A DNA stretch of 64,000 nt from IMG/VR virus record IMGVR_UViG_3300025108_000015, positions 32,001 to 96,000 of that record, one strand, 5' to 3'. The notes under the pieces are model-generated. The model did not search any database. It was not told the DNA's origin and saw nothing but the letters and a program-made list of their open reading frames with translations. The position numbers and the translations under genes are program-made. This document shows positions 5,501-54,542 of the stretch, in pieces. How positions within the stretch are numbered: position 1 is the stretch's first letter; every line of letters starts with the position of its first letter. The stretch comes from a virus.

Positions 5501-8016
5501 TGTATCAAAATGTATACTTCGAAAAAGAAAACAACCTCATCCATTGTTGGGATGATGAGAAAGGTTACTTCACATCTAAATACCGTAGATATGCTTACGT
5601 TAGAGATGGGAATGGTGCTCATACTTCTATTCATGGAGAGAGGCTAAAGAAAATCAACTTTTGGAAGCAAGACGATGGTCTTGAATTATATGAAAGTGAT
5701 GTAAACGAGATGACACGTTTTCTGATTGACCAATATGGTGATTCAGATGAGGTATCGAATGGACATACTGTACTTACCTTTGATATTGAGGTAGAGATGA
5801 ATAGTGGTCTGCCTGATACAAATGAAGCTAAGAATGCTATGACCTCAGTCGCAGGTCATGATTCGGTGAGTGGTGATTACTTTGTATATGTTGTAAATAA
5901 AGGTGAGAAGATTAACAAGACCATCAAAGGTGCTACGGTAGAATCGTTCGATACTGAAGAAGGTATGTTGATTGCGTTCCTAAACAAATGGAAAGAAATT
6001 AATCCAACTATTATTACTGGTTGGAACATTGACTTCTTTGATGTCACGTATCTATACAATCGAATGAAGAGAGTATTGGGTGAGTCTACTGCAAATCAAT
6101 TATCACCAATTGGTAAAGTTCATTGGAATAAGTATCGTAATCGTTATTTGATTGCTGGAGTATCTGCATTGGACTACATCGCTTTATTCAAGAACTTTAC
6201 GTATACTGAATATCCAAACTACCGATTAGACACTATTGCTCGATTAGAGTTGGGTAGAGGTAAGATTGAGTATGAGGGTAACCTTGACCAATTATTCAGA
6301 GATGACTTAGAGAAGTTTATTGAGTACAACTTGGTAGATGTTGAGTTAGTTGTTGATATGGACAAGAAACTTCAGTTCATTGATTTAGCTAGAGCAATAT
6401 GTCACGCAGGTCACGTATTTTATGAAGACTTCTTATTCTCGTCAAAATGGCTAGAGGGTGCAATGTTAACGTTCCTACGTAGGAGTGGTCGTGTTGCTCC
6501 AAACAAACCAAGACGAAGAGCACGTAATGATGATGGAACTGAGGCTGAAGGTAAGTTTACCGGCGCATATGTAAAAGAACCTAAACCTGGTCTTTACAAA
6601 TGGGTATATGATTTGGATTTAACATCACTATATCCATCTATCATTATGACCATCAATATCTCGCCAGAGACAAAGATTGGTAAGTTAAAGAACTATGTGG
6701 CTGAAGACCATATGAAGGGTAAGATTGAAACATATTCAATTATCGATGACGATGGTAATGAGTTTCCTCCATTGGCTAAGGATAAGTTTATGAACTTTAT
6801 CGAAAAGTCAAACTACTCAGTTGCTGCTAATGGTGTTCTATATCGTAGAGATAAGGTGGGTGTGATTCCTGAGATTCTTAATGTTTGGTTTGACAAACGT
6901 GTGGAATACAAAGACCTTATGAAGAAGTATGGTAAGGAAGGTAATGATGAGTTGTATAAGTTCTACTCTCAACGTCAGTTGGTACAAAAGATTATGTTGA
7001 ACTCCTTATATGGGGTACTTGGTCTACCATCATTCCGATTCTATGATGTGGATAATGCTGAGGCAACCACAATCACAGGTCAGACTGTAATTAAGACTAC
7101 CGAGTTGATTGCTAACCAATACTACACAAAGAACATTGGTAAGGAAGCAGATTATAATGTGTATACTGATACGGATTCCGTATTCTATCAGGCAGCACCA
7201 CTTGTAAAAGCTCGTAATCCTGAAATCGATGAGAACTCGGATGAACAAATGATTCCAGCAATTCTATCAGTCGCTAAAGAGGTTGAAGAGCACATCAACA
7301 AGGTGTATGATATGATGGCATTTAAATTGTTCAACGTAGACACTCACCGATTCGACATCAAACAAGAGACTATCGCTAAGGGTGGTTTTTGGGTATCGAA
7401 GAAGAGATACGCTCAATGGATTATAAATGATAATACCGTTGATTGTGATAAGTTGGATGTGAAGGGGTTAGATGTAAAACGTTCATCATTTCCAGTATAC
7501 TTCAAAGAGGTAATGTCTACTGTACTGATGGATATCCTAAAAGATGAGGACAAGAAGAAGTTGGACGATAAAATCCTAAACTATAAGGATGGGATGACTG
7601 ACCAACCATTTGTGAATATCGCAAAGAACTCGGCTGTAAAGGATATGTCTAAGTATAGGTTTAAGGACCAAGCACTTGGTGAGTTCATGAAGGGGACACC
7701 TGCTCACGTAAAGGCTGCACTTACTTACAACCAACTATTGAAGAAGTTTGATGCTCCTTACAAATACGAACCAATGAAGGATGGTGATAAGATTAAGTGG
7801 GTATATCTAAAGAAGAATCCACTTGGACTTCAGACTACCGGATTTACTGGTCACTCCGACCCACCTGAGATAAACGCATTCATTGAACAATACATTGACT
7901 ATGATTTGATTTGGGAGAAGGAGTTGAATAACAAACTCGATGACTTCTACAAAGCAATGAATTGGGAGAAACCAAATCCCAACCTTGCTGCTGCAGCACA
8001 ATTTTTCTCATTTTAA
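5500..8016 (+). CDS. polB: Family B DNA polymerase (T4 gp43-like)
   Basis: Exonuclease FDIE, GWNIDFFD and YNLVD; polymerase DLTSLYPSII, KIMLNSLYG, YTDTDS; no intein seen. Confidence 0.97.
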   Translation: MYQNVYFEKENNLIHCWDDEKGYFTSKYRRYAYVRDGNGAHTSIHGERLKKINFWKQDDGLELYESDVNEMTRFLIDQYGDSDEVSNGHTVLTFDIEVEMNSGLPDTNEAKNAMTSVAGHDSVSGDYFVYVVNKGEKINKTIKGATVESFDTEEGMLIAFLNKWKEINPTIITGWNIDFFDVTYLYNRMKRVLGESTANQLSPIGKVHWNKYRNRYLIAGVSALDYIALFKNFTYTEYPNYRLDTIARLELGRGKIEYEGNLDQLFRDDLEKFIEYNLVDVELVVDMDKKLQFIDLARAICHAGHVFYEDFLFSSKWLEGAMLTFLRRSGRVAPNKPRRRARNDDGTEAEGKFTGAYVKEPKPGLYKWVYDLDLTSLYPSIIMTINISPETKIGKLKNYVAEDHMKGKIETYSIIDDDGNEFPPLAKDKFMNFIEKSNYSVAANGVLYRRDKVGVIPEILNVWFDKRVEYKDLMKKYGKEGNDELYKFYSQRQLVQKIMLNSLYGVLGLPSFRFYDVDNAEATTITGQTVIKTTELIANQYYTKNIGKEADYNVYTDTDSVFYQAAPLVKARNPEIDENSDEQMIPAILSVAKEVEEHINKVYDMMAFKLFNVDTHRFDIKQETIAKGGFWVSKKRYAQWIINDNTVDCDKLDVKGLDVKRSSFPVYFKEVMSTVLMDILKDEDKKKLDDKILNYKDGMTDQPFVNIAKNSAVKDMSKYRFKDQALGEFMKGTPAHVKAALTYNQLLKKFDAPYKYEPMKDGDKIKWVYLKKNPLGLQTTGFTGHSDPPEINAFIEQYIDYDLIWEKELNNKLDDFYKAMNWEKPNPNLAAAAQFFSF

Positions 8017-8048
8017 TTTGGATAGTCCAATTTAATTTCGTATATTAG
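8017..8048 (+). promoter_or_regulatory. Bacteroidota sigma70-like promoter
   Basis: TTTG(8017)-N20-TATATTAG(8041). Confidence 0.75.
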
Positions 8049-8072
8049 TATAATAAATAACAAATAATAACA

Positions 8073-8768
8073 ATGAAAAAGAATTCTATTGAAGGTTTCA
8101 TCTCTCGTTACAACTTGGGTGGTGAAGTGGAGTCAGTAAAAGTTAATTCTACTGACGCCGGAATGCAAGTTTCATTCATCTCTGATGACAAAACTCTATT
8201 GGGTACTGTTGAGAGTGAAGAGACTGGTTTTCCAAATGGAGAGTATGGGGTTTATACCACATCTCAATTAAAAGGTCTACTTGGTGTATTGGGTAGTCAA
8301 GTTGATGTATCCGAAGGTACGGCTGCATTGGTATTCTCTGATGGTAAAACTTCAGTAAACTATATGTTGGCTGACCTCTCAGTTATTCCAGTAGTACCTG
8401 AACTAAAACAACTTCCACCATTTACATCTAATGTAACTATGGATGGTGATTTCATCGCTACCTTTACAAAAGCTAAGGGTGCTATGTCTGATTCAGACAC
8501 GTTTACATTTACGTGTAAAGAAAACAAAGGTGAGGTAATTTTAGGTTACTCTAAAATCAACTCTAACCGAATCTCTATGAATGTCGAGTGTACGTGTGAA
8601 AGTGATGTTGAACCAATTTCATTCTCAGCTAAGTACTTGAAAGAGATTCTAAGTGCTAATCGTGGTGCTAAGTCATCTTCTTTGAAGATTTCACCACAAG
8701 GTCTTGCTCACGTTGCATTTGAGCATGATGGATTCAAGTCTAATTACTATTTAGTAGAGATTAAGTAA
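8073..8768 (+). CDS. Sliding clamp (gp45/PCNA-like)
   Basis: 231 aa with a repeated alpha/beta pattern and FSAKYLKEIL...LKIS..GL..V.F C-terminus; lies between polB and the clamp loader. Confidence 0.8.
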   Translation: MKKNSIEGFISRYNLGGEVESVKVNSTDAGMQVSFISDDKTLLGTVESEETGFPNGEYGVYTTSQLKGLLGVLGSQVDVSEGTAALVFSDGKTSVNYMLADLSVIPVVPELKQLPPFTSNVTMDGDFIATFTKAKGAMSDSDTFTFTCKENKGEVILGYSKINSNRISMNVECTCESDVEPISFSAKYLKEILSANRGAKSSSLKISPQGLAHVAFEHDGFKSNYYLVEIK

Positions 8769-8769
8769 T

Positions 8770-9960
8770 ATGCAGTTTTGGGACACAGAACCAACGAAGC
8801 CGGTGTTTGACTATAATGTTGAGAAAGAAAAGTTCATTGAGAATATGGACTACCTTTCGTCAATGTCAGTAGAAGAGCAGACGCTTTACAAAAAGTGGGA
8901 TGAGTGGAATTCAGACTTACCAACTTCAATGAAACGGAAAGCCGCAATGGCTCAGTATATTGACCAACTATGGTCACCTACTGACATTACGAACAAGGAC
9001 CAAACAATCAAAGAGATTGAGGACCTTGACCCATACGTTGAGATTGTAACTGACTCCAAAGAATCCACTCGTTGGACTGAAATCCGTAAGTTAATCCATA
9101 CAATGTCATTCACTGCTAATCCAGGTCGTAATGTAAAGATGTACATTAAAGACCGAGTAAGTGGTAAGATGTTGGGGTTGGTTTCTTTGGGTTCTGATGT
9201 CACTTCATTGGGAGTTAGGGATAACTATATAGGATGGACTAAGGAGAACAAATTCCAAGATGGTAGATTGAATCACACTACAATAGCAAGTACTATTGTG
9301 TGTACTCAACCATTAGGATATAACTTCTTAGGTGGTAAGTTAGTAGCCTGTATGACTACATCTCCAGTCGTTCGTGAACATTGGAAAGAAAAGTACGGAC
9401 AAGAACTTATTGCAGTAGGTACTACTTCACTATATGGTATCCACTCTCAATATAATGGTATTCCACATTTCAAAACATTGGGTGAGTCAGCTGGTAAAGT
9501 TGCTACCAAGCCAGATGATTCAGTTTATGATGTATGGCATCAATGGTTAAAAGAAAACCAGCCAGATGAGTATGCTAGACACACAACTCAGAAGGATGGG
9601 ATTGCTGGACCTGTATCAGGTGTAAAGCAACGTATCCTATCAATGATATTCAAAGAATTGGGTATTAAACAAAGTCATTATATGCATGGATTCAAACGAG
9701 GTGTATACTTCGCTATGATGTATGATAATGGAAATGAGTTTCTTCGTAATGAGATTGGCGAAAGTGAATTGAAACTAAAGAAGAAGTTTGAGGAAGGTGA
9801 CGATTATACTATGAGGTGGTGGAAGAAGAAGGCTATTAAACGATACTCTAAACTATTTGATGAGGGTCGTATTAAACCAGAACCATTATTTTATCTTGAC
9901 ATCATTGGTATGTCTTGGGAAGAAGCAAAAAAACAATACTTAAAAGAAGTAGGACGATGA
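8770..9960 (+). CDS. DUF4338 (DruA-like, Mom-related GNAT fold) protein
   Basis: IASTIVCTQPLGYNFLGGKLVA, W...YG..L.AVGTTSLYG..SQYN, GES.G pattern. Confidence 0.7.
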   Translation: MQFWDTEPTKPVFDYNVEKEKFIENMDYLSSMSVEEQTLYKKWDEWNSDLPTSMKRKAAMAQYIDQLWSPTDITNKDQTIKEIEDLDPYVEIVTDSKESTRWTEIRKLIHTMSFTANPGRNVKMYIKDRVSGKMLGLVSLGSDVTSLGVRDNYIGWTKENKFQDGRLNHTTIASTIVCTQPLGYNFLGGKLVACMTTSPVVREHWKEKYGQELIAVGTTSLYGIHSQYNGIPHFKTLGESAGKVATKPDDSVYDVWHQWLKENQPDEYARHTTQKDGIAGPVSGVKQRILSMIFKELGIKQSHYMHGFKRGVYFAMMYDNGNEFLRNEIGESELKLKKKFEEGDDYTMRWWKKKAIKRYSKLFDEGRIKPEPLFYLDIIGMSWEEAKKQYLKEVGR

Positions 9961-15894: not shown

Positions 15895-15922
15895 GATTTA
15901 ATAAATATATTTTGTATATTTA
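15891..15922 (+). promoter_or_regulatory. Variant promoter ahead of the glycan island (overlaps an ATATTTATA motif)
   Basis: TTAG(15891)-N20-TATATTTA(15915). Confidence 0.5.
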
Positions 15923-29752: not shown

Positions 29753-30383
29753 TGTTATAATTAGAAATCACAATGAACACGAGTACATCGGGTTCTCAAT
29801 TCAATCAGTGTTGGAGTATATACCTGATGCTGAGATATTGATAATAGATGACCACTCTACCGATGACTCATTGGGTGTTGTTAAGTTGTTTAACAATAGA
29901 GGTGACATCAAGGTGACTACTATTGATGACTACACTCCTGGTAAAGCAATAAATCTTGGTGTAAAACTCGCTAAGTATGAAACGATTTTAGTATTGTCAG
30001 CACATTCTCAGATTACGAAGATGAATTTGGGTTATGTTCAAACCAAACTAAAGTACTACTCGGCGGTATTTGGAAACCAAACTCCAATTTATAGAGGTAA
30101 AAAAATTACTAAGAGATACATATGGTCTCATTTCGGAACTGATGAAGAGGTGGATAATATGCATTCTACTATTGAAGATAGACCATTCTTACACAATGCA
30201 TTTTGCTTTTACAATAAAAAAGATTTGGTTAAGAATCCATTTGATGAATCTATTCCAGGAAAAGAAGATAGGTATTGGGCAATTGAGATTTTAGAAGAAG
30301 GTAAAAACTATTTATATACACCAAGTATCGAAGTAAATCACTACTATACTGGTAATGGCGCGACTTGGAAAGGATTAGGATAA
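29745..30383 (+). CDS. GT2-family glycosyltransferase
   Basis: VSVIIRN.NE, DDHSTD.S, G.A.N.G, EDR.W; ATG 29745. Confidence 0.8.
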   Translation: MVSVIIRNHNEHEYIGFSIQSVLEYIPDAEILIIDDHSTDDSLGVVKLFNNRGDIKVTTIDDYTPGKAINLGVKLAKYETILVLSAHSQITKMNLGYVQTKLKYYSAVFGNQTPIYRGKKITKRYIWSHFGTDEEVDNMHSTIEDRPFLHNAFCFYNKKDLVKNPFDESIPGKEDRYWAIEILEEGKNYLYTPSIEVNHYYTGNGATWKGLG

Positions 30384-31947: not shown

Positions 31948-32680
31948 TGCAGGTCGTGGAAGGCACCACGCATACAATTACAGTATTCAATCTTGGCAGA
32001 AGTGGGCTGAGAAAAATAATGCTGAAGTTGTAATTTGGGATACTGCGTTATATACTTGGGAAGAGATGACTATCCCATGGCAACGATATCACTTATTTAA
32101 AATACTTGACCATAACGAGATAGAATTTGACCAAGTTCTAATGGTTGATTCCGATACGATAGTACATCCAGATACACCTAATTTCTTTGAAATGAACGAA
32201 CGTAAGTATACTGGTGTTCTTGATTTGGGGTGTTGGGAATGGACTGGTAGGTCACTAAGACATTACAAAGATATGTTCGATGGTTACAAGCTAGATAGAG
32301 GTATGTACTTTAATGGTGGATTTCAAATTGTAAACGAATCCCATAGAGAATTCTTTGATTACGTATTAGACTTTTATTTTAAAAATCAAGATACTTTGGT
32401 AGAAAAGCAAAAAGCAGGATTGGGTACTGACCAAACTGTTATAAACTATCTGATACAAACTCAAGGAATTGATTTGAAGATGTTACCTGCCACATTCAAT
32501 CTACATCATATGTCGAGTAAGAACCTACTTAACTTTGGCCAATCGTGGTGGGGTGATAGTATGGATAATCTATACGAACAAGCGTGGGTATATCATTTTA
32601 ATGCAATTCCTAAAAATGGATTGAATAGAAACTCATCATACTTTATAAAAAGAGCATACGAGGAATTATGGGGAGAATAG
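31913..32680 (+). CDS. GT8-like / nucleotide-diphospho-sugar transferase
   Basis: VDSD (DxD), YFNGG, DQT.IN, HFN. Confidence 0.65.
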   Translation: MKKNIIFIPAIDAGRGRHHAYNYSIQSWQKWAEKNNAEVVIWDTALYTWEEMTIPWQRYHLFKILDHNEIEFDQVLMVDSDTIVHPDTPNFFEMNERKYTGVLDLGCWEWTGRSLRHYKDMFDGYKLDRGMYFNGGFQIVNESHREFFDYVLDFYFKNQDTLVEKQKAGLGTDQTVINYLIQTQGIDLKMLPATFNLHHMSSKNLLNFGQSWWGDSMDNLYEQAWVYHFNAIPKNGLNRNSSYFIKRAYEELWGE

Positions 32681-35309: not shown

Positions 35310-35465
35310 ATGAGTGGATTGAGTAGATATGAAGAAGCACTTGAACGTTTAATCAAATCGGTTGATGAGAAGTGGTCAGCTTCATATAAAAAATCCATAG
35401 ATTGTAATAACCCAAAAGGCTTTAGTCAAAAAGCACATTGTGCCGGCCGCAAAAAAGGAAAATAG
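35310..35465 (+). CDS. 51-aa protein with EKWS..YKKSIDCNNPKGFSQKAHC motif; missed by ORF track
   Basis: My translation: MSGLSRYEEALERLIKSVDEKWSASYKKSIDCNNPKGFSQKAHCAGRKKGK. I recall this motif from large myophage proteins. Confidence 0.6.
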   Translation: MSGLSRYEEALERLIKSVDEKWSASYKKSIDCNNPKGFSQKAHCAGRKKGK

Positions 35466-35466
35466 T

Positions 35467-36348
35467 ATGTTACTAAAAGTAGGTTCAAAAGGAAACGAAG
35501 TTAAATTATTACAAGAGTTTTTAGAAATTGGCGCAGATGGTATATTCGGTAAAGGAACTGAGAAATCAGTTAAAGAATTCCAAAAAATCAATGGTTTGGT
35601 TGCTGATGGTATCGTTGGCGCTTCCACTTGGGATTGTATGGGTTTGGCTACTACTGATGACTCAGAAAAGACATTCGAAACGGAAAATTGTCTAATTGTT
35701 AATAGACATTACTTACCTAATGGTGAGTATAAATCAGGCCCAACTAATAAAGAGTATATATTCTTACATCATACTGCAGGGTGGCACAACCCATTCAATT
35801 GTATCGACCAATGGGGTAGAGATTCTCGTGGTGCAGTAGCAACTGAATTTGTATTAGGTGGTCCATCAGTAAAAGGTAACAATGAAGACTATGATGGTGT
35901 AATGGTACAAGCATTTCCTGAAGGTGGTTATGGGTGGCACTTAGGTAAGAATGGGTCACAGTATATGCACACACATTCAGTAGGAATTGAAGTGTGTAAC
36001 TTTGGCTGGATTAAAGATGGTAAAACATATGCCGGTACACGAGTTCATGAATCTCAGTTGGTTGAGTTAGACACCCCATTTAGAGGATTCAAAACTTGGC
36101 ACAAATATTCCGATGACCAAATCGAAGCACTTAGAAAGTGGATTCTATGGATTGGTGAGAGAGATAACATTGATGTAAGAAGCGGATTAGTAGAAGAAGT
36201 AAAGAAAAAAGGTGCAGGTGGATTTGAATTCAATGAAGATGCATACTATGGTAGAGTAAAGGGTATGTGGACTCATACTAATACACGTAAAGATAAGTTT
36301 GATATGTTCCCACAACAAGAACTATTAGATATGTTAATCTCTTTATAG
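35467..36348 (+). CDS. N-acetylmuramoyl-L-alanine amidase with N-terminal peptidoglycan-binding domain (endolysin)
   Basis: LKVGSKG..V..LQ..L....DG.FG..T...V..FQ...GL..DGIVG; IFLHHTAG, SVGIEVCN.G, HTN.RKDK.D; ATG 35467. Confidence 0.88.
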   Translation: MLLKVGSKGNEVKLLQEFLEIGADGIFGKGTEKSVKEFQKINGLVADGIVGASTWDCMGLATTDDSEKTFETENCLIVNRHYLPNGEYKSGPTNKEYIFLHHTAGWHNPFNCIDQWGRDSRGAVATEFVLGGPSVKGNNEDYDGVMVQAFPEGGYGWHLGKNGSQYMHTHSVGIEVCNFGWIKDGKTYAGTRVHESQLVELDTPFRGFKTWHKYSDDQIEALRKWILWIGERDNIDVRSGLVEEVKKKGAGGFEFNEDAYYGRVKGMWTHTNTRKDKFDMFPQQELLDMLISL

Positions 36349-36397: not shown

Positions 36398-39355
36398 ATG
36401 AAAAAGTATTTAATTAATTTATTACTATTGTTATTACCAACTGTAACATTAGCACAAGGTACAAGTTGGTTTGAGTTAAAAGTAGAATTTGGTAGATACA
36501 TATTCACCAGTGGAAATGTATATTCAAACGACCAGTCAATTTTAATAAAGCAAGGTAACGATACATTATACTACAAAGACTACGTTTCCTTAACTAATCC
36601 AAGTACTTACAACTACACTATTTTAAATTGTGATACTGGTGATGTTAAGATAATACTTAACTCTAATAGAACTAGATGGTGGGATAATCAAGGTGTACCT
36701 CCGGTTGTGTGGTTACGAAACGCAACTCAAGATACATTTGTAAACATAGCCCCAATGACATTAGGGTTATTTAGTGGTGCAAACTCAGTTTACTCATACG
36801 ATACAACTGTTAATCTCCTATCACAACCACCACCATACGCAGGTTGTATGGATACATTATCTTCAACTTACGACTCTAATGCTAATATTAATAATGGTCA
36901 ATGTAAATATCCTGTAACTTTTGCAGTAGATATGAACTCTTATAATGACACGTTCTCTCAAGTTTATGTAAGTGGGCAGTTTAATAGTTGGAGTGGTATT
37001 GCAGATTCTTTATCTGATTCAGATGGTGATGGTATTTGGACAGGTACTATTGATATACTAAACAATCCAGGTTGGTTATGGAAGTACTCAGTTGATAACT
37101 GGGTTGACCAAGAGTTACCACCAAATATGCAAAACAATCAAAACCCATACGCTACTTGTTTCTTATTAGATGCCGCAGGGTTTACAAATAGAAATCTTAT
37201 TGTAGATGGAACATCAGTAGTATTAGATACTAATTGTTGGGAAAAGTGTTTAGATTGTGCTGATATTATAGGATGTACTGATACCACTTCTGCCGAATAC
37301 AACCCATGGGCTACAATAAGTGATGGGAAGTGTATAGGGAATCCAGCAGATACACTTTCTTGTTCTTCAAGTGAAACTTACTTAGACGTACAATTCACTC
37401 CCGATAACTATGGTAGTGAATCAAGTTGGATTCTTTATGACAATAATGGAGCAGTATATACAGCATCTCAAGGGACCTATTCTGGCGCATCACCAGGTAT
37501 AGCTATATCACATTACATTTGTGTTGATACAAATGTATTAGTAGATATTGTAATTAACGATTCTTATGGTGATGGTTTAAATGGTACTTTATTTGGTGGT
37601 CAAGTAGATGGTGATTTAAAAGTATATGATTGTTCAGGTAATCTATTATGGTCGTTATCTGATACAATTCCAAATGGTAACTTTGGGTATCAATTCACAT
37701 CTCCACAATTTAATACTGGAGGGATATGTTCTTCAGGCGCGTCTGATGTTTATGGGTGTATGAATCCATTCTCAACCACATACAATCCAAGTGCTACAAT
37801 AGACACGGGTACGTGTGGGCCAGCCCGAATAGTAGGATGTACTGACACATCAGCATTCAACTATGTAGATACCGCTAACACCAGTGAGATAATGACTGGC
37901 GATTATACCTTAAAAATAAAAGATGGCGCCTCAAATGGTTGGGGTGGTACTTGGTTAGGTATCAAACAAGGTGATAACTTGTCTCCTCAATTTAAAATGG
38001 GACCAAATGATGGTTATGAATTAACGTTTGATGTACCTTTAAACATCTATGAACCAATTGATTTGTACCTATTTACAACGACTCAATCTCAAAACTCAAT
38101 CGCTCAGATAGCATATACGTTGTATGGTCCTGAAGGTGATACTATTGTAGATGTTCCGTTTTGGGGAGCAACTACATTACAATTCCCCATAATTCAAAGA
38201 GTTGATTCACAACCAACATTTGGTGATGTTTGTATCGAAAAAGTATTCGGATGTACCGATTCAACATCTATTAATTACGATTCATTAGCTAATACCGATG
38301 ATGGTGGGTGTATTCCTGTTATTTTAGGATGTATGAATCCATTGTCATTTAATTACAACCCTAATGCAAATACGCCTGATACTTGTATAGCTATTAAAGT
38401 AGGTTGTACGGATTCAACAATGTGGAATTACGACCCATTAGCAAATACGTCAGGTACTTGTATTCCTTATATCTATGGTTGTACAAACCCATCCTCATTT
38501 AATTATAATGCATTAGCTAACACGGATGATGGTTCATGTGTTCCTGTAATTTATGGGTGTACGGACCCAACATCTTATAATTACGATTCATTAGCTAACA
38601 CGGATGATGGGTCGTGTATCGCTAGAGTGTATGGTTGTACTGATTCAACTTCGTTTAACTTTGACCCATTAGCTAATACTGATAATGGAACTTGTGTTCC
38701 TTACATTTATGGGTGTATGGATGTTAACTCATTTAACTACAATCCTGATGCTAATACAAATCAAGTATCGGCTACTGATTTTTCAAACCCATGTATTCCA
38801 ATTATCTATGGTTGTACTGATTCAACGTCACTTAACTACAACCCATTAGCTAATACTGATAATGGTAGTTGTATTACCCCAATATATGGTTGTACTGACC
38901 CAAATGCTCATAATTATAACCCAAATGCTAATGTTTCTGACACTACGGCGTGTTTATATGATGCTGGGTGTATAGATGGGCCTGGTAACCCATATTGGTT
39001 AAATGACCCATGTTACGCTTGGGTAATTGATGTAGACGAGTATTGTTGTACTAATTCGTGGGACACTGATTGTCAATATCTGTATGATTATTGTGCTACT
39101 GTCAATGGTACTCTTAGTATTGATGATATTGACTTTAAAAATATTGTTGTGTATCCTAACCCAACAACAAATACATTAAATATCAGAACTACCTTGGATA
39201 TTACATATACTTTATACGACTTTATGGGTAAATTGATTGTTGAAAATTCTAAAGAACGAACAATTGATATGTCATCATTAGCAAATGGTGTTTATTTCCT
39301 ATCAATTGAACACCATGGTACACGATTTAATAAAAAAATTGTAAAGGAAGATTAA
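36398..39355 (+). CDS. Secreted repeat protein with a T9SS type-A C-terminal sorting domain
   Basis: Signal peptide ending TLA-Q; CBM48/CBM20-like module (VTFAVDM...VSGQFNSW...D.DGDGIW); 13 GC(T/M)D/N Cys repeats; C-terminal VYPNP...L...D..GK.I...IDMSSL.NGVYFL......KKIVK. Confidence 0.85.
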   Translation: MKKYLINLLLLLLPTVTLAQGTSWFELKVEFGRYIFTSGNVYSNDQSILIKQGNDTLYYKDYVSLTNPSTYNYTILNCDTGDVKIILNSNRTRWWDNQGVPPVVWLRNATQDTFVNIAPMTLGLFSGANSVYSYDTTVNLLSQPPPYAGCMDTLSSTYDSNANINNGQCKYPVTFAVDMNSYNDTFSQVYVSGQFNSWSGIADSLSDSDGDGIWTGTIDILNNPGWLWKYSVDNWVDQELPPNMQNNQNPYATCFLLDAAGFTNRNLIVDGTSVVLDTNCWEKCLDCADIIGCTDTTSAEYNPWATISDGKCIGNPADTLSCSSSETYLDVQFTPDNYGSESSWILYDNNGAVYTASQGTYSGASPGIAISHYICVDTNVLVDIVINDSYGDGLNGTLFGGQVDGDLKVYDCSGNLLWSLSDTIPNGNFGYQFTSPQFNTGGICSSGASDVYGCMNPFSTTYNPSATIDTGTCGPARIVGCTDTSAFNYVDTANTSEIMTGDYTLKIKDGASNGWGGTWLGIKQGDNLSPQFKMGPNDGYELTFDVPLNIYEPIDLYLFTTTQSQNSIAQIAYTLYGPEGDTIVDVPFWGATTLQFPIIQRVDSQPTFGDVCIEKVFGCTDSTSINYDSLANTDDGGCIPVILGCMNPLSFNYNPNANTPDTCIAIKVGCTDSTMWNYDPLANTSGTCIPYIYGCTNPSSFNYNALANTDDGSCVPVIYGCTDPTSYNYDSLANTDDGSCIARVYGCTDSTSFNFDPLANTDNGTCVPYIYGCMDVNSFNYNPDANTNQVSATDFSNPCIPIIYGCTDSTSLNYNPLANTDNGSCITPIYGCTDPNAHNYNPNANVSDTTACLYDAGCIDGPGNPYWLNDPCYAWVIDVDEYCCTNSWDTDCQYLYDYCATVNGTLSIDDIDFKNIVVYPNPTTNTLNIRTTLDITYTLYDFMGKLIVENSKERTIDMSSLANGVYFLSIEHHGTRFNKKIVKED
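38240..38960 (+). repeat. In-frame tandem repeats (9 units of ~25-27 aa, GCTD...NY(D/N)PLANTDDG.C) within the T9SS cargo gene
   Basis: Recurrent ggttgtac(t/g)ga...aattac...ttagctaa(t/c)ac(t/g)gat units; boundaries approximate. Confidence 0.85.
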
Positions 39356-39356
39356 T

Positions 39357-40436
39357 ATGAAAAAGTTATTGTTATTACTGATATTACCTCTTACAATGTC
39401 AGCACAAACTAAAGATGATAAATCAACACTTAGTGATTTCAAAAAGAATTTAAATAAAATTACTAAGTTTGCTACATTCTATGGTGCATATAATGGTAAT
39501 AATTCGATTTCGGATATTACCACATACTCAGTTACGGATGGGCTAAGTACGACAACAACTGTAACTCCTTACGATTACTCAGCAGTATTTGGATTGAGAA
39601 AGATTCAGAGATTTGGATATGAACCAAATATTCAGAATAGGTTTAAGAATGGTACTGAAAACTCATTCTCAGATGCAGCAACCATAGGAAGTAAATCACG
39701 TGGATTCGAGTATTTGTTCGAATTTGATTATAGAAGACAACAAGGTAAGCAGTTCTTAAATCAAGACCACTTTGTAAGATACATTGCAGACAACTATGTA
39801 TTTAAAGTAGAATACTTAGAGGATGGGTTTGCTGATATTGGTTATTTCGAGTCTTCAGAAAGACTTAGACATAAGTTCAATAGAAAGTTTTCAATTAATA
39901 TAGGTGCAATGCAACGTATCTCAGAACCATATGGATTCGACCCATTTGCCGATTGTATAAGACCTGATGGTAGTATCCCATGGATGAAAATAGCTACCGA
40001 TATGGGGTACAATTGGAATACATTGGGGTTGGGTGATGTTTATACAAATCCTAATGGTGAAATAGTAGCTAATAGTACCGCAGTATTCGAAGAAGTGGTT
40101 GTACCACAAATACTTTCAGAGTATGCTAATAACCAAAGAAATCAGTTACCTAACAAATGGGAACACTCATTGGTATTAGGATTTGATTATTACAAATACT
40201 CTAAAAACTTTTGGTTACACTCGTGGGCAAACTTGTTACCATATCACCTTGACTTAGACGATGATTATAGTTACCATAAATTTCACAATGGGCAATGGAT
40301 AGATTATTCAGGTGGACTAATTCTTGGATACCGATTCAATAAGTCATTGGGTATATTTACTGAAGGTAGATATCATCAATATTGGAATCGTAGTTGGTAT
40401 GAATTCTCAACTGGTATAAACTTTATTATATTATAA
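39357..40436 (+). CDS. Putative outer-membrane beta-barrel protein
   Basis: Signal peptide ending MSA-Q; aromatic/Gly-rich alternating strands; C-terminal YEFSTGINFIIL strand. Confidence 0.55.
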   Translation: MKKLLLLLILPLTMSAQTKDDKSTLSDFKKNLNKITKFATFYGAYNGNNSISDITTYSVTDGLSTTTTVTPYDYSAVFGLRKIQRFGYEPNIQNRFKNGTENSFSDAATIGSKSRGFEYLFEFDYRRQQGKQFLNQDHFVRYIADNYVFKVEYLEDGFADIGYFESSERLRHKFNRKFSINIGAMQRISEPYGFDPFADCIRPDGSIPWMKIATDMGYNWNTLGLGDVYTNPNGEIVANSTAVFEEVVVPQILSEYANNQRNQLPNKWEHSLVLGFDYYKYSKNFWLHSWANLLPYHLDLDDDYSYHKFHNGQWIDYSGGLILGYRFNKSLGIFTEGRYHQYWNRSWYEFSTGINFIIL

Positions 40437-40440
40437 TATC

Positions 40441-40674
40441 ATGAAAAACTTTAAAAAAAATATTGGAACATTATTATTGACTATCATAGTAATACTCCAC
40501 ATAATATTCATACATTTAAAGATATCAAGCGTAGAATCTAAGATTCCAACTGACTATGTACCAAGAATGGAATATGAATTAAAAGACCAAATGATTAGAC
40601 AATCGATAAATAATATTTTTGGTGATATTAGAGAAATACAAAAAGAACTTGAAAAAATAGAAGAGGGGAAGTAA
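40441..40674 (+). CDS. Single-TM coiled-coil membrane protein, paralog A
   Basis: N-terminal TM; RMEYELKDQMIR motif. Confidence 0.6.
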   Translation: MKNFKKNIGTLLLTIIVILHIIFIHLKISSVESKIPTDYVPRMEYELKDQMIRQSINNIFGDIREIQKELEKIEEGK

Positions 40675-40677
40675 GTT

Positions 40678-40962
40678 ATGGCTAAGAAGTTAGATGAGGG
40701 AACTCAAATTACTTTAGATTTAAAAACAATAGGAATCATCTTATTCTTTGTTGCCACTGTCGTAGGTATGTGGTTTACATTACAATCTGACATAGAAGAT
40801 GCAAAAGAATTACCAATACCACCCGATCCAGAAGTAACACGGATGGAGTTCGATATGAAAGACCAGATGATTCGTAATACTATTCTTAATACACAAGGTG
40901 ATGTTACTGAGATAAAAGAGGACATGAAGCGTATAGAAGAAAAAATAGATGAGTTGAGGTAA
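40678..40962 (+). CDS. Single-TM coiled-coil membrane protein, paralog B
   Basis: TM segment; RMEFDMKDQMIR motif shared with paralog A. Confidence 0.65.
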   Translation: MAKKLDEGTQITLDLKTIGIILFFVATVVGMWFTLQSDIEDAKELPIPPDPEVTRMEFDMKDQMIRNTILNTQGDVTEIKEDMKRIEEKIDELR

Positions 40963-40963
40963 C

Positions 40964-41293
40964 ATGAAAAAGATACTACTAATATTATCATTACTATTCA
41001 TTACAAATATATCAAAAGCTCAGATAGTTGTAATACACTTCAATGCTGCTTGGAACGAATCTAATTCAGTTAAGTGGGTAGATGGTTTAGAAGATTGTGA
41101 TATAGAACACGTTGATATCGCTAAAAAACCCAAACTACAAAAAGAATATCAAGTAGTAGTAGTACCTACTATTATAATACTTCAGTATGATGAAGTTAAA
41201 AAAAGATACCAAGCTGACTTGAGTTTTAAACTTAGTGCTACAAAAGAAGAAATACAAGATGCAATAGATGAACTTGTACTAAGTGGGTTTTAA
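40964..41293 (+). CDS. Exported thioredoxin-fold protein without CxxC
   Basis: Signal peptide ending SKA-Q; VIHFNAAWN..N at the active-site position; VDI...L..EY.V.VVPTIII (cis-Pro). Confidence 0.65.
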   Translation: MKKILLILSLLFITNISKAQIVVIHFNAAWNESNSVKWVDGLEDCDIEHVDIAKKPKLQKEYQVVVVPTIIILQYDEVKKRYQADLSFKLSATKEEIQDAIDELVLSGF

Positions 41294-41332
41294 CATCGTT
41301 ACATATTTATAATCAATAAGGAGTTACATTAC

Positions 41333-41578
41333 ATGAAAACAATTTGGAGAAAGATTATGGCTTTTAAAGACATTTTTAAAGATGACAACGATGTAAACGA
41401 GAAAAATGTAATAGGATTTCTATCATTTGCAGTAATGGTAATATTCGCAGCTGCCGATTTAATTACTGGTTACTTAGGTAAAGATTTGGTAGTTCAAGAA
41501 TTCATATACAACTCATTTGTGTTTATAACACTTGGTTGTTTTGGCATCGCAGGCTTAGAAAAGTTTGCTAAAAAATAG
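41333..41578 (+). CDS. Two-TM membrane protein (holin-like)
   Basis: Two hydrophobic helices and a basic C-terminus (EKFAKK). Confidence 0.5.
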   Translation: MKTIWRKIMAFKDIFKDDNDVNEKNVIGFLSFAVMVIFAAADLITGYLGKDLVVQEFIYNSFVFITLGCFGIAGLEKFAKK

Positions 41579-41584
41579 TAAAAA

Positions 41585-42229
41585 GTGAAACTTAGTGATA
41601 TAATAGAACTCAAGTCAATGGGGTACTCCGATGAGATTGACCCTAAACACTTGAAGGTGATGAAGGAAACTCCATCTATGTTGGCTGACTTTGAATGGAA
41701 GCAATTCGCAGGTCAACCACCACATGGTAATGATAATTCCAAAACGAAGATGGAACTCCACCAACTTGCTAAACTCCCTATGGATAACTCATTCGTAAAA
41801 GAAATGGATGATATATCTAAAGTATTCAAAGACTATTGTAATACAGTAGATATCGATTACCCAAAAGGATTAGTGGATATATTGATTGACGATTCTCGTA
41901 TTTTCATAACTAAACTTAAATACTTATATAATAGACCACGACCCAAACAATTGGCAAAACACCCAATGGTGAATGTCCCAATGAAGGATACTGAGTTGGA
42001 CTCTATGAATACTCCCTCATATCCAAGCGGACACTCAACTCAAGGTGTGTTAATTGGTTTGGTTTTGAGTGATATGTATCCGGACCATCAACACAATTTA
42101 ATGGACTTAGCAAAAGACATATCATACTCACGAAATGTGGGAAGAGCACACTACCCATCAGACTCAAAGTTTGGTGAAAAGCTTGGTAACGAAATGTTTA
42201 AGTATTTAAAAAAAGTGAAACTAATATAA
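41585..42229 (+). CDS. PAP2 / vanadium-haloperoxidase-like phosphatase
   Basis: K..Y.RPRP, PSYPSGHS, SR..G..HYPSD. Confidence 0.85.
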   Translation: MKLSDIIELKSMGYSDEIDPKHLKVMKETPSMLADFEWKQFAGQPPHGNDNSKTKMELHQLAKLPMDNSFVKEMDDISKVFKDYCNTVDIDYPKGLVDILIDDSRIFITKLKYLYNRPRPKQLAKHPMVNVPMKDTELDSMNTPSYPSGHSTQGVLIGLVLSDMYPDHQHNLMDLAKDISYSRNVGRAHYPSDSKFGEKLGNEMFKYLKKVKLI

Positions 42230-52958: not shown

Positions 52959-54542
52959 ATGGGTAAAGAAGTATTTTACGGAAAGACATCGAGAGAGAAA
53001 CTCTTAGAAGGTGTAGATGCATTAGCAGATGCAGTTGTAGTTACATTAGGACCACGTGGTCGTAACGTGATTATTGAAACTGATACAACACCACATATTA
53101 CAAAGGATGGGGTTACAGTAGCTAAGTCTATTGAATTTACAGACCCAACCAAAAACTTGGGTGCTAAGGTAATCAAAGAAGCATCTCAACAAACTGCTGA
53201 CAACGCAGGTGATGGGACAACTACCTCAACTGTACTTGCACGTGATATCTTTAAAAAAGGTATGGATGCAATTGAAAAGGGAGCTAACCCAATTGAATTG
53301 AAACGTGGGATGGATACTGCAGTAAAAGGTATTGTTAATAATCTTGTTGAAACCATTTCAACTAAAGTAGAAACTAACGACCAAATCAAACAGGTAGCAA
53401 CAATCTCAGCAAATGGTGATTCGGTGATTGGTTCTATGATTGCTGATGCAATGGACCAAGTTGGTCGTGATGGGGTAATTACTGTTGAAGAGGGTAATTC
53501 AAGTGATGATGAACTGACTATTGTAGAGGGGTTGGAATTCGAACAAGGATACCTATCACATTATTTCATTAACAATCAGACCAAATTGACTTCTGAATTA
53601 GAAGACCCTATGATTCTTATGTATGATGGTCGTATTTCAGAAATGGATGACATCGTTGGTATCCTTGAGGGTGTATCAAGTAAGAATCAGGCAATTGTAG
53701 TAATTGCTCAAGAAGTAGATGGGCAAGCGCTAGCTACAATGGTAGTTAATTCGGCACGTCAAACCTTAAAATGTGTTGCTATCAAAGCACCTGGCTTCGG
53801 TAACGAACGTAGTGAGATGTTGAGAGATATGTCTGCTCTAACCGGCGCTACTTTGTTTGGTGGTGTTGGTAAAGAGTTGGAAGATATCACAATGGATGAC
53901 TTAGGGTCAGCTGACAAAGTAGTGGTTAGTAAATCTAAATCAGTAATCATTGGTGGTGCTGGTGAATCGGATGATATCAAACTCCGTATTGACCAAATCA
54001 AGAATGAAATCGAAGAATCGAGTTCAGACTATGAGAAAGAAAAACTACACAAACGATTATCTAAGTTAAGTGGTGGTGTTGCAGTTCTCAGAGTAGGTGC
54101 TGAATCTGAAATCGAGATGAAGGAAAAGAAAGATAGAATTGATGATGCTCTACTTGCTACAAAAGCTGCAGTCGAGGAAGGTATTGTGCCAGGTGGTGGT
54201 TCTGCTCTAATCCACGCAAGTGATAGAATACATATGGGTGTTGATAGATTATCAGCTGACCAAGAAACCGGATTCAATATTGTATGTTCTGCCTGTTACT
54301 CACCTTTTAATTCTATTTTAGAAAATGCAGGTTTAACTTATACACCAGAAGGTGAAACTCAAACTACTTATGGTTATAATGTAGTGACTGAACAATGGTG
54401 TGATATGTTAGAAGTGGGTGTAATTGACCCAACCAAAGTAACACGAACGGCACTTGAAAAAGCTGTCTCAGTTGCATCTACATTACTAACCACGGAATGT
54501 ATGATTGTCAATGAGGTAGAGGATAGTGAATCGGAAGCTTAA
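52959..54542 (+). CDS. groEL: Chaperonin GroEL
   Basis: TLGPRGRNV, ITKDGVTVAK, GDGTTT, KAPGFG, GGVAV, GIVPGGG, IDPTKVTR; no GGM tail. Confidence 0.97.
   Translation: MGKEVFYGKTSREKLLEGVDALADAVVVTLGPRGRNVIIETDTTPHITKDGVTVAKSIEFTDPTKNLGAKVIKEASQQTADNAGDGTTTSTVLARDIFKKGMDAIEKGANPIELKRGMDTAVKGIVNNLVETISTKVETNDQIKQVATISANGDSVIGSMIADAMDQVGRDGVITVEEGNSSDDELTIVEGLEFEQGYLSHYFINNQTKLTSELEDPMILMYDGRISEMDDIVGILEGVSSKNQAIVVIAQEVDGQALATMVVNSARQTLKCVAIKAPGFGNERSEMLRDMSALTGATLFGGVGKELEDITMDDLGSADKVVVSKSKSVIIGGAGESDDIKLRIDQIKNEIEESSSDYEKEKLHKRLSKLSGGVAVLRVGAESEIEMKEKKDRIDDALLATKAAVEEGIVPGGGSALIHASDRIHMGVDRLSADQETGFNIVCSACYSPFNSILENAGLTYTPEGETQTTYGYNVVTEQWCDMLEVGVIDPTKVTRTALEKAVSVASTLLTTECMIVNEVEDSESEA

Follow-up and report, generated by a model that had tools for sequence, protein, structure and literature searches.

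Proteins that end in a sorting domain for a type IX secretion system (T9SS) have been predicted in phages before. Cryophage, an uncultured phage from cryoconite, carries three T9SS type A genes that were proposed to hijack the host T9SS (Bellas et al. 2020, Nat Commun, PMC7468147). The crAss-like gut phages of Bacteroidota encode proteins with T9SS sorting domains; their genes are upstream of the head module, and a role as tail-fibre or structural proteins has been considered for them (de Jonge et al. 2019, Viruses, PMC6949934). Here we describe a viral gene for a 985-aa predicted T9SS type A cargo, labelled P0001, and compare it with these systems. The gene occupies positions 36398 to 39355 of the DNA analyzed, a stretch of 64,000 nucleotides referred to below as the window (positions 32,001 to 96,000 of the IMG/VR virus record IMGVR_UViG_3300025108_000015). 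Positions are those of the window unless a record, locus or protein is named. The P0001 gene, its parts and the neighbouring lysis/envelope genes all lie on the plus strand.

P0001 resembles the Cryophage proteins in coming from an uncultured phage, in having a T9SS type A sorting domain and in being variable between phage variants, and export is predicted only in both cases. However, the Cryophage genes encode an endoglucanase, a GH39 protein and a PA14-domain protein. P0001, on the other hand, appears to be non-enzymatic, combines a fold of the carbohydrate-binding module (CBM) families CBM20/48 with a stalk of Cys repeats, and belongs to a lysis/envelope cluster of a T4-like marine phage. 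The crAss-like proteins share with P0001 the sorting domain, and one of them has carbohydrate-binding-type (BACON) repeats, but neither a Sec signal nor a lysis context is reported for them (PMC6949934). A third case was found in the cultured Flavobacterium phage vB_FspM_immuto_3-5A (MW353176.1), a T4-like relative (57.7% identity in the capsid protein). Its 243-aa protein immuto35A_15 has a Sec signal with Gln at position +1, a cohesin domain and a C-terminal Por_Secre_tail match of 36.7 bits in Pfam and 47.1 bits in TIGR04183, and is annotated in MW353176.1 as 'cohesin domain-containing protein' only, not as T9SS cargo. Both proteins combine a Sec signal with a T9SS C-terminal domain (CTD), yet outside the CTD they show no sequence relation, and the homologue of the outer-membrane barrel that adjoins the P0001 gene is not adjacent to immuto35A_15. 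The run from immuto35A_13 to immuto35A_15 (L027:2528-5423) encodes a C-type lectin, a 363-aa protein and the cohesin protein with its T9SS CTD, all with a Sec signal and Gln at +1. An earlier reading of the window made from the sequence alone (the sequence-only reading) knew of no characterized phage T9SS substrate. We found none in the literature either, but such cargo had been predicted in the two studies cited above, and a gene with a T9SS sorting domain is also present in immuto. P0001 is a well-resolved addition to a class that earlier publications had predicted; it establishes no new principle.

Export signals of the predicted cargo

Based on the listing of open reading frames (ORFs) and its translation, the P0001 ORF starts with ATG, has no internal stops and runs uninterrupted for 985 aa. 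Its first 19 residues (36398-36454) were called as a Sec signal peptide by inspection of the sequence, with predicted cleavage at TLA|Q. The N-terminus, MKKYLINLLLLLLPTVTLA|QG, shows KK in the n-region, then a hydrophobic core and, before Gln20, a small-x-small site; Gln at +1 of signal peptides is common in Bacteroidota. At the other end, a type A T9SS sorting domain covers aa 915-985 and, with the stop codon, positions 39140-39355. It was matched by PF18962 with 56.1 bits (cut-off 27) over aa 918-982 and by TIGR04183 with 50.4 bits (cut-off 23) over aa 918-984 of 985, and it could be aligned with the CTDs, 75 residues long, of the substrates in Flavobacterium johnsoniae T9SS complexes of known structure (8glk_D and 8glj_D). 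Hence the two features by which T9SS type A cargo is recognized, an N-terminal Sec signal (here by inspection) and an above-cut-off CTD at the extreme C-terminus, are both found in P0001.

These signals are a property of a large family. A word-index search with P0001 yielded 507 relatives, at least 120 of them at E=0 with 35-99% identity, and several homologues are located on contigs of 138-176 kb. The Sec signal with Gln at +1 and the tail ...GVYFL...NKRIVKED were retained in nearly all of 120 homologues, and PF18962 matched 38 of the 39 full-length homologues that were aligned. Every domain is under purifying selection, with an overall ratio of nonsynonymous to synonymous substitution rates (dN/dS) of 0.12; the values for the CTD and the signal peptide were 0.18 and 0.28, respectively. 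Two distant homologues (37-39% identity) are co-located with the capsid protein Gp23 on their contigs, so the gene has a long history in T4-like marine phages. Of five related viral fragments, two were found to carry Gp23, and a DNA polymerase search of the same five found none, these contigs being fragments.

The locus itself is viral. The record is a single IMG/VR virus contig of 172,976 bp, about 90% complete according to CheckV, that encodes a T4-type Gp23 (258 bits), a family B DNA polymerase, a clamp loader and an exonuclease; as far as its sequence tells, the source would be an uncultured marine phage of the T4 type, large in size and with hosts of the Flavobacteria type. An assembly chimera, a possibility raised in the sequence-only reading, was excluded because an independent assembly of 172,940 bp shows the same gene order at 99% identity, because the local synteny is kept in 15 further viral loci (16 in all) and because G+C is even across the window. 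Coding is almost entirely on one strand. A megablast search of the 16 kb around the P0001 gene against GenBank phages gave no match.

Similar proteins are also encoded by bacteria. P0001-type repeats and sandwich modules were common in metagenome-assembled genomes (MAGs) of marine Flavobacteriales, with 23-38% identity. Five such proteins were located on Flavobacteriales/Cryomorphaceae contigs that measure 213 kb to 1.39 Mb; in each of them a TIGR04183 domain (44-51 bits) forms the end of the protein. SprA is encoded in the three of those genomes that were checked and in two further genomes. An example is a 2,638-aa protein (L060:772-8685), from a genome that encodes SprA, which has GC(T/M)D repeats, beta-sandwich modules and a C-terminal TIGR04183 domain as P0001 does. 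Unlike P0001, the chromosomal proteins are bacterial, much longer or otherwise composed, and without linkage to a lysis cluster. Since chromosomal T9SS cargo shares its modules, P0001 is built like host cargo; this is in line with capture of the gene or of modules and with recognition by the host machinery. A host link through the single-cell genome AH-700-E14 was considered and dropped, because the contig has a host-type repeat protein and no phage genes.

We consider it very likely that P0001 is exported as a cargo of Sec and then of the T9SS, since both signals are kept in homologues, the CTD evolves with a dN/dS of 0.18 and SprA-encoding Flavobacteriales carry like cargo. The intact ORF with its TLA-Q signal, the type A CTD, for which a TIGR04183 check had been proposed, and the view of P0001 as phage-encoded cargo for the host T9SS had all been put forward in the sequence-only reading; each of them held, the last as a prediction.

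A competing explanation makes P0001 a protein of the virion, or a decoration protein acting after lysis, with the CTD-like domain being an Ig-like fold and the N-terminal hydrophobic stretch no working signal. Ig-like domains are common on virions, which would suit this explanation. When P0001 was compared with phages by tblastn, the repeat unit alone matched, in the Synechococcus cyanophage S-CAM3 and in a marine virus. The S-CAM3 protein YP_009321289 (516 aa, L110:5572-7122) is encoded in the tail-fibre region and annotated as a virion structural protein, so the repeat unit apparently moves between phage fibre proteins and T9SS cargo. The location of the crAss-like T9SS-domain proteins near head genes points in the same direction (PMC6949934). 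However, the Sec signal that is preserved in nearly all homologues is canonical, the architecture is identical to that of chromosomal T9SS cargo and no structural PHROG matched P0001. Moreover, some 88 kb separate the gene from Gp23; it is not part of the structural modules but is placed between sugar-metabolism and lysis/envelope genes. Because of the conserved signal peptide and the position of the gene, a virion role seems very improbable to us.

Domain architecture and variation of P0001

A model of aa 20-620 obtained with AlphaFold2 (AF2) from a 40-sequence alignment (pLDDT 77.8) is all beta and comprises four sandwich domains joined by single Cys repeats. Because a Foldseek search with the whole 601-residue model returned generic strings of Ig-like domains, we relied on the domain-resolved list of VIA-align matches. 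The first domain of the model, the N-terminal 'head' (aa 20-146, 36455-36835), showed a weak likeness to Ca-dependent CBMs (2xhh, Z 5.8). The second is a CBM20/CBM48-like module (aa 171-288, 36908-37261). Here the model residues that correspond to aa 169-284 aligned with the CBM20 of STBD1 (8x8k) at Z 10.8 and an rmsd of 2.1 over 91/97 residues. The next matches were the CBM48 domains of AMPK-beta and SNF1, followed by glucoamylase, beta-amylase, CBM25, CBM26 and CBM41, and in the model this segment has the fold of the CBM20/CBM48 family. Among the full-length homologues, 14 of 39 were matched by PF16561 (E up to 0.01; best 4.8e-08), and the PF16561, CBM_48 and CBM53 profiles all match members of the P0001 family; a phmmer search gave SIP2 as its sole match (E 0.7). 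At least 90% of the sequences retain F195, N196, W198, W214, W228, K229 and D233, and the FNxW, WK and D positions would correspond to the binding residues of AMPK-beta.

The two remaining sandwiches, D3 and D4, gave weak matches, as did the head (Z 5.4-5.8 for the three), to Ca-dependent CBMs and PLAT/C2 sandwiches. D3 (aa 314-450, 37337-37747), weakly PLAT/C2-like at Z 5.8, carries an invariant D-x-YGDG motif, and D4 (aa 497-612, 37886-38233), weakly PLAT-like at Z 5.8, has a mean identity of 73% in the family. Units of the form GC(T/M)(D/N) were found at aa 149, 292, 453, 480, 618, 644, 669, 694, 720, 746, 772, 805 and 831, which agrees with the earlier count of 13 repeats, nine of them in tandem. 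The tandem block of two-Cys repeats (GCTD..NY..AN.DDGSC; aa 618-856, 38249-38965) has a period of 25-26 residues with one of 33 and a dN/dS of 0.07, and presumably forms a disulfide-stiffened stalk; the copy number of the repeat varies from 11 to 24 across homologues. It is followed by a Cys knot (aa 857-900, 38966-39097), opened by GCID at aa 857, which with a mean identity of 84% and near-invariant columns is the most conserved segment of the family. P0001 has 41 Cys in total, all outside the CTD, and the mature protein is strongly acidic, with a net charge of about -75.

No catalytic fold was recognized in P0001. An ESM Atlas feature search returned unnamed viral clusters and nothing else, and PHROGs held no family for P0001, for the barrel encoded next to it or for several other neighbours. 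The all beta-sandwich build, the CBM20/48 fold and the conserved FNxW/WK residues of the modelled protein support the view that P0001 is a non-enzymatic binding protein, in keeping with the adhesin or glycan-binding protein that had been suggested for this gene.

Variation is unevenly distributed along the protein. The head is its most variable structured domain, with a mean identity of 43% as compared with 66-73% in the other domains, and a dN/dS of 0.34, whereas the values for the CBM-like module, D3, D4 and the repeats range from 0.07 to 0.11. In two metagenomic variants, L004 and L011 (8001-10955), the cargo DNA is identical from codon 314 to the stop, while the first 300 codons or so are highly diverged and the head and CBM show a dS of 0.7-1.0. 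This points to recent recombination in which the head and CBM were exchanged while the stalk and anchor stayed constant. Such a swapped head is typical of specificity-determining tips and of ligand-recognition proteins, and the head may be regarded as the swappable specificity part of P0001.

The same data bear on the possibility that P0001 is a particle or nutrient adhesin, either on the surface or released, that binds an alpha-glucan such as an algal or bacterial glycogen-like polymer, to the benefit of the infected cell. In this way the infected cell, and afterwards the burst, would be kept on particles of polysaccharide that new hosts inhabit. The starch-binding fold with its conserved aromatic and Lys positions, the profile matches to PF16561, CBM_48 and CBM53 among family members and the occurrence in host genomes of T9SS cargo made of the same modules are what one would expect of such an adhesin. 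However, the position in the lysis cluster and the late-type motif described below speak against a feeding role, and the most variable part of the protein is the head, not the CBM. We regard this explanation as doubtful.

Predicted display on the infected cell and possible roles

We favour a reading in which P0001 is a non-enzymatic, stalked glycan-binding protein that is exported by the host's two-step route and displayed late in infection; on the present sequence evidence this appears probable, with room for doubt. Sec would export the precursor, the signal peptide would be cut before Gln20 and some 20 disulfides would form in the periplasm. The host T9SS (the SprA translocon with PorV) would then recognize the type A CTD, and P0001 would reach the cell exterior, where the CTD would be removed and the protein would either become attached to the surface or be released. 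Should it be anchored, its C-terminal end would hold it to the cell, the Cys knot and the nine repeats would form an acidic stalk, and the CBM20/48-like module and the head would point outward.

The timing was approached through intergenic sequence motifs. A sigma-70 consensus scan performed no better than shuffles and was replaced by k-mer enrichment. The 8-mer TATTTATA is the most intergenic-enriched word of the genome (19 of its 23 copies are intergenic) and resembles the T4 late promoter TATAAATA. Its copies are mostly in regions of structural genes, and it is found mostly before structural and lysis genes. In relatives the motif is close to the cargo gene: it was located 42 nt upstream of it in two of them (L004 and L011) and, in L013, at the start of the gene. 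The copies nearest to the P0001 gene are at 30309 and 15917 upstream, and the next one downstream is at 41304. As the upstream copies are distant in this genome, the P0001 gene would be read on a longer late transcript, and it is probably a late gene.

As to what the displayed protein does, it could act as a lectin-like mask or decoy: on the lysing cell and its debris it would bind a glycan or receptor of the host surface, or it would exclude superinfecting phage, with the head being exchanged by recombination as host glycans change. We propose this masking role tentatively and with low confidence. Anchoring to the surface as against release, and the roles in superinfection exclusion, aggregation and attachment to particles that were put forward in the sequence-only reading, are guesses. 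A purely functional analogy is offered by Llp of phage T5, an outer-membrane lipoprotein that blocks the FhuA receptor. Both would be phage-made envelope proteins that mask a receptor on the infected cell and on debris, but Llp follows a lipoprotein export route, differs in size and has no homology with P0001.

Superinfection might also be excluded without any binding, if an abundant phage cargo jammed the host T9SS or its attachment sites by saturation and T9SS-dependent receptors were no longer displayed. In Flavobacterium columnare and F. psychrophilum, resistance to phage has been reported to map to gliding-motility/T9SS genes (10.1101/2020.10.02.323337, PMC9804748), which would be in line with jamming, as would the conserved CTD. 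Nevertheless, jamming would need neither 900 residues of binding domains under purifying selection nor a swappable head, and it appears highly unlikely.

Several points weigh against late display of a glycan-binding T9SS cargo. In P0001 itself Pfam CBM_48 (PF02922) remained below threshold (14.9 bits against a cut-off of 22.4); the CBM48/20-like module claimed in the sequence-only reading is supported by its fold and not by a profile match in P0001. The virion protein YP_009321289 of S-CAM3 shares the Cys-rich unit, with two YGC(T/K)D..NYNP.AN...GC repeats, and has no signal peptide, so these repeats do not prove periplasmic folding. The T9SS-domain proteins near head genes in crAss-like phages make a structural, Ig-like use of such domains conceivable in phages (PMC6949934). 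In this genome there is no TATTTATA within 6 kb upstream of the P0001 gene. Finally, export would presuppose that host Sec and T9SS are working late in a T4-like infection.

If the favoured reading of P0001 as a displayed cargo is true, then during infection marine Flavobacteriia, major consumers of polysaccharide from algae, would have proteins made by the phage at their surface or around them, and adsorption, aggregation and particle attachment could change. Hundreds of variants of this large family are found in public metagenomes, and its carriers are an abundant T4-like group of marine phages; any role would therefore be ecologically widespread. The analysis also provides a clear domain map, in which the head is a candidate swappable specificity part, and Flavobacterium sp. 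LMO8 with phage immuto is a cultured pair on which T9SS-dependent export of a phage protein could first be tested.

Genomic neighbourhood, relatives and host

The upstream neighbour of the P0001 gene is an endolysin-type gene (35440-36348) with PG_binding_1 and Amidase_2 domains, recognized by Pfam and PHROG matches, whose likely true start is the ATG at 35467. Downstream, and beginning one base past the P0001 stop codon, lies the gene for a 359-aa putative outer-membrane beta-barrel with a Sec signal (MSA|Q; 39357-40436), which was identified by synteny and by an AF2 model with pLDDT 79.8. Its structure matches were generic barrels at Z of about 10 (NanC, OpcA and Tsx), with PorV at Z 8.7, and pointed to no specific family; there was no Pfam match in any of 36 members and no PDB sequence match. 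An assignment to PorP/SprF (PF11751) was rejected, as an hhalign comparison with ten PorP/SprF proteins from three Flavobacteriales genomes aligned the signal peptide only, with a probability of 13%.

The barrel gene is followed by two paralogous genes (40441-40962) whose products, of 77 and 94 aa, each show in their sequences one transmembrane (TM) segment and a coiled coil. Next comes a gene (40964-41293) for a 109-aa putatively exported protein (SKA|Q) with a thioredoxin (Trx) fold but without CxxC, as judged from its sequence, its synteny and a sub-threshold Pfam Thioredoxin match. An 81-aa holin-like protein with two TM segments (2-TM; 41333-41578), also called from its sequence, is preceded by the TATTTATA copy at 41304. 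After the 2-TM gene there is a gene for a PAP2-superfamily phosphatase (41585-42229, 40 bits) that may act on lipid or undecaprenyl phosphate.

In each of the 16 viral loci the cargo gene is found together with the genes for the barrel and the 94-aa and 109-aa proteins; the gene order takes two forms. In L033 the genes run 2-TM, cargo, barrel, TM coiled coil, Trx and endolysin, so that the 2-TM homologue is directly upstream of the cargo gene; L033 and L032 are MAG matches that proved to be phage contigs binned with Flavobacteriales. The P0001 gene is no stray moron but a conserved part of the lysis/envelope cluster. The 94-aa protein is present in all 16 loci and also in L029, from a marine podovirus of 45 kb. 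In L029 a trio made up of TM coiled coil, Trx fold and barrel is found without T9SS cargo (7306-9092), directly before a GTA_holin_3TM holin. The trio without cargo was found again in L123 and L124, two small phage-like contigs, and a barrel homologue (P0168) occurs in a bacterial context (L125). Since the trio exists without it, the cargo is an add-on to the envelope module and not an obligatory part. The trio (39357-41293) could be an envelope-spanning set that stands in for spanins in these phages.

This arrangement would also agree with P0001 being a working part of the phage outer-membrane lysis/envelope machinery together with the trio, weakening or marking the outer membrane at lysis, and not an independent lectin. 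The cargo is linked to its three partners in every locus, separated from the barrel by a one-base gap and bordered by endolysin and holin-like genes whose order varies, and a distant barrel homologue adjoins a holin in the podovirus. Nonetheless, such a role is unlikely in our view: the trio occurs without cargo in L029, L123 and L124, the cargo diverges faster than the barrel in the same genome pairs (63-68% identity against 82-86%), and its head is swapped by recombination, as is typical of ligand-recognition proteins. In a more specific form of the favoured reading, P0001 would be a late T9SS-displayed lectin serving as an 'exit' factor, of a type not known to have been described in Bacteroidota phages, that coats the lysing cell and outer-membrane debris and masks the phage's own glycan receptor, beside a trio that maybe replaces spanins. 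Progeny would then not be lost by re-adsorption, or superinfection would be excluded, and the head would follow the diversity of host surface glycans. This proposal is speculative and rather doubtful.

Immediately upstream of the lysis/envelope cluster there are about 20 kb of sugar-modifying genes (14059-34814), which include a Nol-like carbamoyltransferase, several glycosyltransferases, a UDP-glucose dehydrogenase-like gene and a nucleotide-sugar epimerase. The TATTTATA copy at 15917 precedes the sugar-modifying block, whose target could be virion fibres or the host surface.

With respect to the host, the closest cultured relative with a Bacteroidota host by capsid protein is Flavobacterium phage vB_FspM_immuto, at the identity given above, and Rhodothermus phage RM378 is a distant capsid match. 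The best GenBank capsid match was Microcystis phage Mel-JY01 (PP395634.1, 59.5%), for which the listed host is a cyanobacterium and in which TIGR04183 found no match. A search for an SU10-type capsid gave no match anywhere and was uninformative, and no tRNAs were found in the 64-kb window. The Gln +1 pattern is shown by three adjacent exported proteins. A second promoter-like class, TTTGG-N19-TATATTAG (also written TTTGG-N19-TATATTAGTA or TTTGG-N19-(C/T)GTATATTAGTA), was found before replication and early genes and resembles the -33/-7 layout of Bacteroidota promoters. Taken together, the T9SS tag, the Gln +1 residues of the neighbours, this promoter class and immuto as a capsid relative support a Bacteroidota host, as predicted from these features.

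Promoter-like classes were located in the window at 297, 2519, 8041, 12219, 43329 and 48463, among other positions. Two further putative envelope proteins are encoded elsewhere in the record: a 193-aa protein with a lipobox-like LTRGC|Q (C1:149906-150487), which could be an o-spanin-like lipoprotein, and a 175-aa Sec-signal protein (MKS|Q; C1:97604-98131) with a strand-like C-terminus. The window also contains a GroEL-type chaperonin gene at 52959-54542 (phrog_5725, E 3e-163).

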